Sequence record: ON528742
DNA length: 64,000 nucleotides
From: Shigella phage ESh32
Direction: 5' to 3' (one strand)
Each line of letters starts with the position of its first letter. Position 1 is the first letter of the stretch. Below the pieces are notes generated by a model. It did not search any database and was not told the origin of the DNA. It worked only from the letters and a program-made list of their open reading frames with translations. This document shows, one piece after another, positions 55,242 to 56,787 of this stretch. Position numbers and translations under genes: made by a program.

Positions 55242-55825
55242 TGATTGAATTGGTATTCGCCTATTCTCCAACTAAAACAGTCGAAGGCTTTGATGAATTA
55301 GCATTCGGTTTAGGTGATGGACTTCCATGGGGACGAGTTAAAAAGGACCTCCAGAATTTTAAAGCTCGTACTGAAGGTACGATTATGATTATGGGTGCTA
55401 AAACGTTCCAGTCATTGCCTACATTACTTCCTGGTCGTAGTCATGTGGTGGTATGTGATATTAAACGCGGCTATCCTGAAACTAAAGATGGCGATTTGGC
55501 TCATTTTTATATTACCTGGGATGAGTATGTTACCTTATTAGCCGGTGGACGCATCCAATTATCCAGTCCTAACACAAATTTTAAAACGTTTATCGATGAC
55601 AACGAAAATCGCATCAGTGTAATTGGCGGTCCTGCTCTGTTATATGCTGCATTGCCTTATGCGGATGAAGTAGTTGTTTCTCGTATCGTTAAAAAGCATC
55701 GTGTTAATTCAACAGTTCAATTAGATGCAAGCTTTCTTGATGATATAAGCAAGCGTGAAATGGTTGAAACGCATTGGTATAAAATAGATGAAGTAACAAC
55801 CCTTACGGAATCAGTATATAAATGA
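55241..55825 (+). CDS. frd: dihydrofolate reductase
   Basis: 194 aa from [10 protein letters not shown]; DHFR motifs. Confidence 0.9.
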
Positions 55826-55845
55826 AATAACGCGTGGCGGAAAAT

Positions 55846-56193
55846 ATGAACTTTAATTATTACCCTATTCTATTAGAAAAAGACGCGAAACAACCAAAAT
55901 GGCAGGGTCCTCAGTTTATTAAAGGCGTCTATCAATTAGTAGTTCCTAAAGACAAGATTTATAGTAGTTGTTTCACTGAATCCGCTTGCAGTATTTTCGG
56001 TAATAGTTCTCCGTATTGGAATTTTGATATAAAACTGGATAGAAATATCGATATTTGGTTGAAAGCCATGGATATTGGCAATATTACGTTTGATGAGAAT
56101 AATTATCATATTATTGGTCGCTTTTCTAAACGCGGTAAAGAATTATATTTCACTCCTGAAATCGAAAGAAAATTTGATGCTAAACCGTATTGA
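55846..56193 (+). CDS. hypothetical protein (115 aa) in insertion between frd and td
   Basis: ORF inside a 409-bp segment flanked by AAATGAAA direct repeats. Confidence 0.5.
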   Translation: MNFNYYPILLEKDAKQPKWQGPQFIKGVYQLVVPKDKIYSSCFTESACSIFGNSSPYWNFDIKLDRNIDIWLKAMDIGNITFDENNYHIIGRFSKRGKELYFTPEIERKFDAKPY

Positions 56194-56238
56194 TTATTTA
56201 GCTTCATAAAATGTATTATAATTTATATAAGGTACTAA

Positions 56239-56787
56239 ATGAAACAATACCAAGATTTAATTAAAGACATTTTTGAAAATGGCTATGAAACCGATGACCG
56301 AACAGGCACAGGAACAATTGCTTTGTTCGGTACTAAATTGCGCTGGGATTTAACTAAAGGTTTTCCTGCGGTAACAACTAAGAAGCTCGCCTGGAAAGCT
56401 TGCATTGCTGAGCTAATATGGTTTTTATCAGGAAGCACAAATGTCAATGATTTACGATTAATTCAGCATGATTCGTTAATCCAAGGCAAAACAGTCTGGG
56501 ATGAAAATTACGAAAATCAAGCAAAAGATTTAGGATACCATAGCGGTGAACTTGGTCCAATTTATGGAAAACAGTGGCGTGATTTTGGCGGTGTAGATCA
56601 AATTATAGAAGTTATTGATCGTATTAAAAAACTGCCAAATGATAGGCGTCAAATTGTTTCTGCGTGGAATCCAGCTGAACTTAAATATATGGCATTACCG
56701 CCTTGTCATATGTTCTATCAGTTTAATGTGCGTAATGGCTATTTGGATTTGCAGTGGTATCAGCGATCAGTAGATGTTTTCTTGGGT
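56239..56787 (+). CDS. td: thymidylate synthase exon 1
   Basis: 183 codons ending at GGT immediately before intron TAATTGAGGCCTGAG. Confidence 0.95.

Follow-up and report, generated by a model that had tools for sequence, protein, structure and literature searches.

Gene content of the frd-td interval in Shigella phage ESh32

The interval between frd and td was analysed in a 64,000-nucleotide (nt) stretch of Shigella phage ESh32 (sequence record ON528742; this whole stretch is called the window below). A sequence-only reading of the same DNA had interpreted this interval as a 409-bp gene cassette that was inserted between the two genes and is flanked by direct repeats. The region belongs to a mosaic Tequatrovirus (T-even phage), whose closest matches in the phage collection are at 96-97% over 14 kb. 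From frd onwards, the gene order on the + strand is frd, a 115-amino-acid (aa) open reading frame (ORF), td exon 1, the td intron with I-TevI, td exon 2, nrdA.2, nrdA.1 and nrdA. The 115-aa ORF, referred to here as ORF_A, keeps this position and lies on the same strand as frd and td. The features of the interval are as follows.

55241-55825, + strand: frd (dihydrofolate reductase), 194 aa, ending ...ESVYK* with TGA at 55823-55825; called frd in all matching records
55819-55827, + strand: left copy of TAAATGAAA, read directly from the sequence; it spans the final AAA codon and TGA stop of frd as well as the ATG that opens a mini-frame
55826-55845, + strand: putative untranslated remnant (AATAACGCGTGGCGGAAAAT) of a longer ancestral tail of frd; it aligns colinearly with frd tails that are in frame in phages Phaginator and F2 and that read GEKR(EF)* in outgroup contigs L013 and L014; also holds GGCGGA/GGA Shine-Dalgarno-like bases for the 115-aa ORF
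55846-56193, + strand: ORF_A, the 115-aa ORF, ortholog of RB32ORF229c and member of phrog_1928 (from the ORF list and a profile match)
56194-56238, + strand: ORF_A-td spacer, 45 nt (from junction comparison)
56198-56222, + strand: promoter-like TTAGCTTCA-N10-TATAAT with a MotA-box-like AGCTTCA (from the sequence; unique in the window)
56229-56232, + strand: AAGG, putative Shine-Dalgarno-like element for td, 6 nt 5' of the ATG (read from the sequence)
56236-56244, + strand: right copy of TAAATGAAA, read directly; includes the td ATG AAA
56239-56787, + strand: td (thymidylate synthase) exon 1, beginning ATGAAACAATAC; 99% aa identity to T4 Td exon 1 (T4/T6 annotation)
56788-57800, + strand: td group I intron region, with the I-TevI ORF at 56919-57656; exon 2 runs to 58115

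The identical octamers AAATGAAA at 55820-55827 and 56237-56244, 409 nt apart, were confirmed, although the exact repeat is in fact 9 bp long, TAAATGAAA. The sequence-only reading had also described a mini-frame, ATG AAA TAA, following the frd stop, and had placed the td start 415 bp downstream of it. The mini-frame exists, but at 55822-55830 rather than 55823-55831, and td does start at 56239, which is 417 nt, not 415 nt, from the mini-frame ATG. As that reading stated, frd and td do overlap by ATGA in T4, with the T4 junction reading GTATATAAATGAAACAATAC and containing a single copy of the 9-mer.

When we compared the 501-bp region with dinucleotide shuffles, two pairs of exact direct repeats of at least 9 bp were present, the second being CAAGATTTA, compared to 1.7 +/- 1.4 in the shuffles; 82% of shuffles of this 30%-GC stretch gave at least one such repeat. 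In the window as a whole, TAAATGAAA occurs 8 times, compared to approximately 4 expected. The repeat is not statistically remarkable in itself; what is notable is only where its copies lie, at the frd stop and at the td start. This arises because both sites share a stop/start context: TAAATGAAA is a generic T4-type junction, in which TAA or AAATGA of one gene is followed by ATG-AAA of the next. The GenBank record of RB32 (DQ904452) already describes RB32ORF229c as 'flanked by 9 bp repeat', so its annotators had noticed the feature earlier. A perfect 9-nt inverted pair, TATATAAAT and ATTTATATA (55815-55823 and 56221-56229), is also found just inside the direct repeats; it is AT-rich, is one of 11 similar pairs per 500 bp, has its right arm in the part of the spacer that F2 and Phaginator lack, and is probably due to chance.

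ORF_A is widespread and syntenic in Tevenvirinae

The occupied junction, not the empty one, is the common arrangement: the 405-bp segment was found in 366 phage records, 362 of them at near full length and always at one place per genome, while the empty T4-type junction, detected with a junction-spanning 68-mer, was found in 32 records only. Segment carriers include T2, T6, RB32, RB14, RB3, RB27, AR1 and PP01, whereas the empty-junction records are T4 stocks, RB55, RB59, vB_EcoM_112, G28, F1, FN, FL12, FL18, HY03, SG1, G2133 and JEP6. The closest known system is RB32ORF229c (DQ904452, ABI95053.1) together with its orthologs in T2, T6, RB14, RB3, AR1 and PP01, which is the same gene in the same position with the same 9-bp repeat. 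Protein identity to the window copy is 97-100% in this group, and 100% for T2, RB14, RB3, AR1 and PP01; no material difference was apparent, the window copy being another allele with 99.8% nucleotide identity to that of T2.

A tblastn search with the ORF_A protein extended the distribution to 580 records, again with one place each, 218 of which were under 60% identity. The distant orthologs are 27-66% identical and, in every distant genome inspected, they lie directly 3' of frd and 5' of td. This synteny was observed in at least 8 other Tevenvirinae genera, usually with overlapping stop/start codons, and two metagenomic contigs likewise carry frd-td-syntenic orthologs whose proteins are 63-66% identical. 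The following genomes have an ORF_A ortholog between frd and td.

Kanagawavirus: PEi26, Entb_45
Jiaodavirus: Mineola
Roskildevirus: Cronus
Winklervirus: CHI14
Gelderlandvirus: STML-198
Moonvirus: Moon
Slopekvirus-like: Klebsiella phage Biddle_MM4

In many genera a second small gene, ORF_B, stands beside ORF_A, and some add a third gene of 68-69 aa, ORF_C, giving the following contents of the frd-td gap.

A + B + C: L013, Entb_45, the Klebsiella phage
A + B: PEi26, CHI14, Moon, STML-198
B' + A: Cronus
A only: Mineola, most Tequatrovirus, NHEP29
C only: JS98
Empty: the T4 clade, RB69 and most Mosigvirus, MX01, VR20

In JS98 (EF469154.1), the 202-nt frd-td 'intergenic' gap hides an unannotated 68-aa ORF_C (1296-1502 of locus L021; 144213-144419 of the record, minus strand). 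Its identity to the ORF_C of other gaps is 80% (L013), 79% (Biddle_MM4) and 68% (Entb_45), and the overlaps ATGA and TAATG couple it to frd and td, respectively. A search for ORF_A paralogs in the rest of the window and at the T4 and RB69 loci found none, the family hidden Markov model matching only ORF_A in the window. ORF_A is a known, conserved, uncharacterised gene in its common, probably ancestral, arrangement, and its repeat was already annotated in RB32.

Junction anatomy points to a deletion in the T4 lineage

Compared with T4, the frd-td junction of the window is, as the sequence-only reading had it, a clean indel bounded by a short direct repeat, but its polarity appears to be reversed. 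We consider it likely (probability of about 0.85) that the 409-bp segment represents the ancestral frd-td gap content of the Tevenvirinae and that the T4 overlap is a derived deletion. T4 reads GTATAT-AAATGAAA-CAATAC, with one repeat copy and colinear flanks, in place of the two copies in the window.

The frd 3' ends of F2 and Phaginator bear directly on the origin of the left repeat. In these phages frd ends ...GTA TAT AAA AAT GAA ATA ACG CGC GGC GGA AAA TAT GAA TTT TAA, a long tail that overlaps the ORF_A ATG by 11 nt and whose stop position is that of outgroup contig L014 (VYGEKREF*). Where F2 and Phaginator have AAAAA, the window, T2, T6 and RB32 have AAA, and their frd is shifted to TAT AAA TGA. 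The left copy of the 9-mer thus has a homologous counterpart in F2 and Phaginator, TAT AAA AAT GAA A, which encodes the frd tail residues Y-K-N-E. The sequence-only reading had taken ATG AAA TAA for a relic of the td start codons; the same bases, plus two A, are an in-frame part of the frd C-terminal tail in F2 and Phaginator. Because these phages translate the bases as frd tail, the left repeat and ATG AAA TAA are best read as frd tail codons (K-N-E-I) out of frame rather than as a decayed td start.

The flanks of the T4 junction were also informative. T4 td diverges by 2.6% from the window, by 3.1% from T6 and by 2.0-6.4% from insert-bearing type-ii alleles, and the T4 frd 3' end is 1.7% from that of T6, while the F2/Phaginator and Mosigvirus alleles are 15-22% away. 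Since its frd and td flanks nest inside insert-bearing diversity, T4 would be a deletion derivative. Synonymous divergence in frd, ORF_A and td, respectively, was 0.155, 0.175 and 0.195 for RB32 and 0.19, 0.53 and 0.64 for F2; because ORF_A tracks its neighbours, it appears to be as old as its flanks within the genus.

Similar pairs of full and empty junctions were observed in other lineages. NHEP29, which is unclassified, has Mosigvirus-like flanks (frd 97.6% and td 91.6% identical to RB69), and its ORF_A is ATGA-coupled to frd and bracketed by TAAATGAA; RB69 corresponds to NHEP29 minus the ORF between those repeats. Within Dhakavirus, MX01 corresponds to JS98 minus ORF_C between AATGA repeats. 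F2 is classified as a Tequatrovirus and has a Tequatrovirus-like frd 3' end, yet its td, at 11% divergence from RB69 and 20% from the window, resembles that of Mosigvirus, and its ORF_A has 97.4% nucleotide identity to that of NHEP29. Comparison of these alleles provides evidence of inter-genus recombination at the frd-td locus in F2 and NHEP29, with ORF_A exchanged between lineages.

These observations are consistent with the following course of events. In the ancestor, the gap would have contained as many as three small genes (A, B, which is a paralog of A, and the 69-aa C), with a longer frd tail overlapping the start of A. Judging from the outgroups, B and C would have been lost in the main Tequatrovirus lineage. 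Loss of 2 nt in the A-run may then have frameshifted frd to ...VYK-TGA, leaving at the frd stop a TAAATGAAA that happens to match the td start context (TAA-ATG-AAA). A deletion from one 9-mer to the other, a single event in the T4 lineage, would have taken out 417 bp and yielded the ATGA overlap, likely through replication slippage or illegitimate recombination, which between short repeats is a classic route to deletion in T4. The Mosigvirus and Dhakavirus gaps would have been emptied independently by like deletions between ATGA/ATGAA stop-start repeats, and homologous recombination in frd and td could move either allele without leaving scars. Different starting contents may have converged on one frd/td overlap because each gene boundary has the same microhomology.

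The classic deletions between short direct repeats in T4 are the illegitimate deletions of the rII type. The T4 frd-td junction shares with them one repeat copy at the novel joint, colinear flanks and a repeat of 8-9 bp. It differs in that the repeats are functional stop/start contexts, so that a working ATGA overlap is regenerated, and in that the event appears to recur in several lineages.

Some evidence weighs against an ancestral segment. The genera closest to Tequatrovirus (most Mosigvirus, MX01 and VR20) are empty, and simple parsimony alone does not favour presence of the gene in the T-even ancestor. As the parsimony count is not decisive, three things carry the case: the anatomy of the junction, the evidence from NHEP29 and JS98, and the nesting of T4. 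Arguments from local trees are weakened by the rampant recombination in these phages, F2 and NHEP29 both being mosaic. It is also conceivable in principle that the 2 nt separating the window type from the F2/Phaginator type were gained rather than lost.

Alternative origins of the segment

The insertion originally proposed would have placed a promoter and ORF cassette into an ancestral T4-like ATGA junction, duplicating an 8-9-bp target and leaving ATG AAA TAA as decayed td codons. Such an event would fit the precise coincidence of the two 9-mers with the frd stop and the td start, the single copy in T4, the mostly empty sister genera, and the finding that, past the 9-mer, TAAATGAAATAACGC and TAAATGAAACAATAC differ by transitions only. 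We nevertheless regard it as very improbable, because F2 and Phaginator read the left-repeat bases as frd tail, down to the outgroup stop position; the supposed target duplication resolves into a frameshifted frd tail on the left and td's own start on the right, and repeats of such size are at chance level in the region. The segment also lacks the attributes of a mobile cassette. Its only ORF is the 115-aa one, and Pfam and NCBIfam searches found no mobility gene or domain and PADLOC no match, I-TevI being 0.7 kb away inside the td intron and unrelated to the segment; its ends show no meaningful terminal inverted repeats, just 11 AT-rich inverted pairs of 8-12 nt per 500 bp, a count made without a shuffle control; and it occupies a single location in 366 of 366 and 580 of 580 records, with no second copy in the window. 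In addition, ORF_A has diverged as much as its flanks, the T4 flanks are nested within insert-bearing diversity, and an insertion requires two illegitimate joins, whereas a deletion gives the exact T4 sequence in a single event. A td relic with target-site duplication had been entertained given the empty RB69, MX01 and VR20 junctions and the transitions-only difference between ATGAAATAACGC and the td start ATGAAACAATAC, but it was rejected on account of the in-frame tail of F2 and Phaginator. NHEP29 was likewise considered and rejected as proof of illegitimate insertion into a Mosigvirus, because the F2/NHEP29 allele travels with a Mosigvirus-like td, so that vertical presence followed by recombination suffices.

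A second possibility, which we consider unlikely, is that the ancestor of Tequatrovirus, Mosigvirus, Dhakavirus and Gaprivervirus already lacked the gene, which a Tequatrovirus then regained from another T4-like lineage by homologous recombination in frd and td. NHEP29-like phages would have regained it separately, the repeats would be incidental, and T4 would have stayed empty or lost the gene again. RB69, MX01 and VR20 are indeed empty with the same ...VYK*/ATGA structure on strongly diverged flanks, and the NHEP29 ORF is 97.4% identical to that of F2 even though the frd lineages differ (NHEP29 frd is 97.6% identical to RB69 but 63% to the window). However, within Tequatrovirus the synonymous divergence of ORF_A, at most 0.53, is in line with those of td and frd, the Mosigvirus-like td that accompanies the F2/NHEP29 allele fits vertical presence in both genera, and T4 nests among type-ii alleles. 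JS98 moreover retains a different gap gene, ORF_C, which argues that the gap of the T-even ancestor was not empty. An apparent ORF_B-start remnant at the 3' end of ORF_A (ATGCTAAACCGTATTGATT) was discarded; since its bases fall within the conserved DAKPY codons of ORF_A, it is not an independent sign of a lost ORF_B.

The value of a likely T4 deletion is mainly corrective: at the frd-td locus, T4 is the reduced genome, and features lacking in T4 look like insertions elsewhere because T4 is the reference genome. The gap provides a small, clear example of T4-like phages shedding accessory genes. The stop/start overlaps at successive boundaries (ATGA, TAAATGAA) are built-in microhomologies, and whichever two of them a deletion joins, a functional junction results, so lineages converge on the 'textbook' frd/td overlap. 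The lasting interest lies in a strongly conserved protein family with a confidently predicted fold that is present in T2 and T6 but not in T4 and is readily testable genetically. The ORF_A data point to no unusual mechanism.

ORF_A belongs to a small family restricted to T4-like phages

The ratio of nonsynonymous to synonymous divergence of ORF_A was 0.02-0.14 against six alleles, indicating that it is a real, constrained gene. Its product has a mass of 13.6 kDa, an isoelectric point of 8.5 and 20 aromatic residues. The description of the 115-aa ORF as having no recognisable motif held up, as Pfam (searched with the single sequence and with all 26 family members), NCBIfam and PADLOC gave no match. 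ORF_A does match phrog_1928 over its full length (E = 8.4e-36, residues 4-111), a family without an assigned function, Pfam model or solved structure. ORF_B falls in the same family, and an hhalign comparison of ORF_A with ORF_B supported their paralogy (99.6% probability, E = 1.9e-23). A scan of 1.84 billion representative proteins returned 22 matches at E <= 0.001, 20 of which are standalone proteins of approximately 95-116 aa; the two longer matches were judged spurious, one (P0021) being a reverse transcriptase and the other (P0023) lacking a Pfam match. The family is small and restricted to T4-like phages. Residues Q16, W19, G27, G91, K95 and G97 of ORF_A are invariant, and the motifs QxKW (16-19) and GRFxKxG (91-97) are common to ORF_A and its paralog.

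AlphaFold2, supplied with a 26-sequence alignment, predicted a small beta-rich domain whose one helix spans residues 68-76 (predicted local distance difference test score 90.6, predicted template modelling score 0.83). No solved structure was matched when this model was compared with the Protein Data Bank (PDB) using Foldseek, and the best hits of a sequence profile search of the PDB (E = 0.03; TagH, dynein) were not credible. A search of BFVD returned only uncharacterised proteins of T4-like phages, including the neighbouring paralog of Cronus. Proteins with an oligonucleotide/oligosaccharide-binding (OB) fold dominate the weak tails of both structure searches, and the predicted order of elements in ORF_A (beta1-3, helix, beta4-5) would be compatible with OB-fold domains such as those of SSB, RPA, S1, Teb1 and Cdc13. 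ORF_A also resembles GoF, MotB.1 and Frd.2, LSm-like proteins of Tevenvirinae that are small, early, uncharacterised, T4-group-specific and beta-rich (PMC12152347), in being small, uncharacterised, T4-group-specific and, in its model, beta-rich. Frd.2 is encoded 1.8 kb upstream in the window (53678-54064, PF03197); ORF_A showed no sequence relationship to this LSm-like family, the window Frd.2 included, and there was no LSm or Hfq protein among the structural matches.

A search of the available literature collection found nothing on this frd-td gap locus. Because T4 and RB69 lack ORF_A, it is dispensable in the laboratory. Our best guess, which is tentative, is that ORF_A may be an accessory ligand-binding protein acting in host interaction, with nucleic acid or a nucleotide as the ligand, given the conserved basic and aromatic surface of the model and its predicted QxKW loop and GRFxKxG hairpin. 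It appears doubtful that the protein instead works with Frd and Td in the thymidylate cycle or the deoxynucleoside triphosphate-synthetase complex, as an accessory subunit or a regulator. The position between frd and td, kept with overlapping stop/start codons in at least 8 genera, and the strong purifying selection would suit such a role. On the other hand, T4, RB69, MX01 and VR20 make functional Frd and Td without ORF_A, the gene is patchily lost and laterally exchanged in the manner of accessory genes, its product has no similarity to any enzyme or folate- or nucleotide-binding family, and unrelated small ORFs are normally packed tightly in T4-like genomes. We see only a slim chance for a broader proposal, in which ORF_A and ORF_B would constitute a Tevenvirinae-specific family with a fold unlike solved structures, translationally coupled between frd and td in approximately 10 genera, and would act either with those enzymes as a scaffold or regulator or as a nucleotide-binding counter-defence factor. 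Were a family of either kind real, it would have been overlooked for decades because T4 happened to delete the gene.

The spacer before td contains a candidate promoter element

The spacer between ORF_A and td is 45 nt in the window type compared to 13-15 nt in F2, Phaginator and NHEP29, from which approximately 29-30 nt (roughly 56195-56223), including the promoter-like TTAGCTTCA-N10-TATAAT, are absent. The spacer is conserved in T2 and RB32, and T6 has a 1-nt deletion. In middle promoters recognised by MotA, the box (a/t)(a/t)(a/t)TGCTT(t/c)A precedes a -10 element TAnnnT by approximately 12 +/- 1 nt. Compared with this consensus, tatTTAGCTTCA has one core mismatch (A for T), and an alternative -10 element, TAATTT at 56219-56224, gives a 12-nt spacing from the MotA-box-like element. 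A generic sigma-70 scan detected a weak 9/12 site at 56190-56219, with the region not enriched over shuffles. The spacer element thus resembles, and is a candidate for, a MotA-like box plus a -10 element.

Flanking genes and related records

Upstream of the interval, the order on the + strand is frd.2, frd.1, a DUF7247 gene, an 85-aa ORF and frd. The DUF7247 gene (54640-54999) and the 85-aa ORF (54984-55241) sit between frd.1 (54387-54629, DUF5417) and frd, whereas the frd.1-frd gap of T4 is 71 nt. As outgroup contigs L013 and L014 hold the same two extra genes, T4 appears to be reduced upstream of frd also. The Frd proteins of the window and T4 share 86% aa identity, and the centre of the gene is mosaic: at the nucleotide level the ends of frd are 95-100% identical to T4, while nucleotides 180-420 are just 57-80% identical. 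Downstream, the window combines ORF_A, as in T2, which is without the td intron, with a T4-type td intron and I-TevI, as in T6, RB3 and PST. Rfam searches at the gathering score found no family anywhere in 55700-58200.

Annotation of the interval varies among records. ORF_A was left unannotated in the T2 and PP01 records AY310907.2, NC_054931.1 (T2) and NC_054930.1 (PP01), and MW749001, OM386666, OK272484 and OK272476 label the ORF_A stretch just 'putative dihydrofolate reductase', which is probably spill-over from the adjoining frd or a misannotation. In Enterobacter phage Entb_45 (1002-1516 of locus L011), frd is annotated as two pseudogene fragments, and the three gap genes and td are intact. 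PV654520.1, a 142-kb record named 'Pseudomonas phage vB_PSGBLB0006' and labelled with P. aeruginosa, is 95.6% identical to the window over 14 kb, and its host label or assembly looks doubtful.

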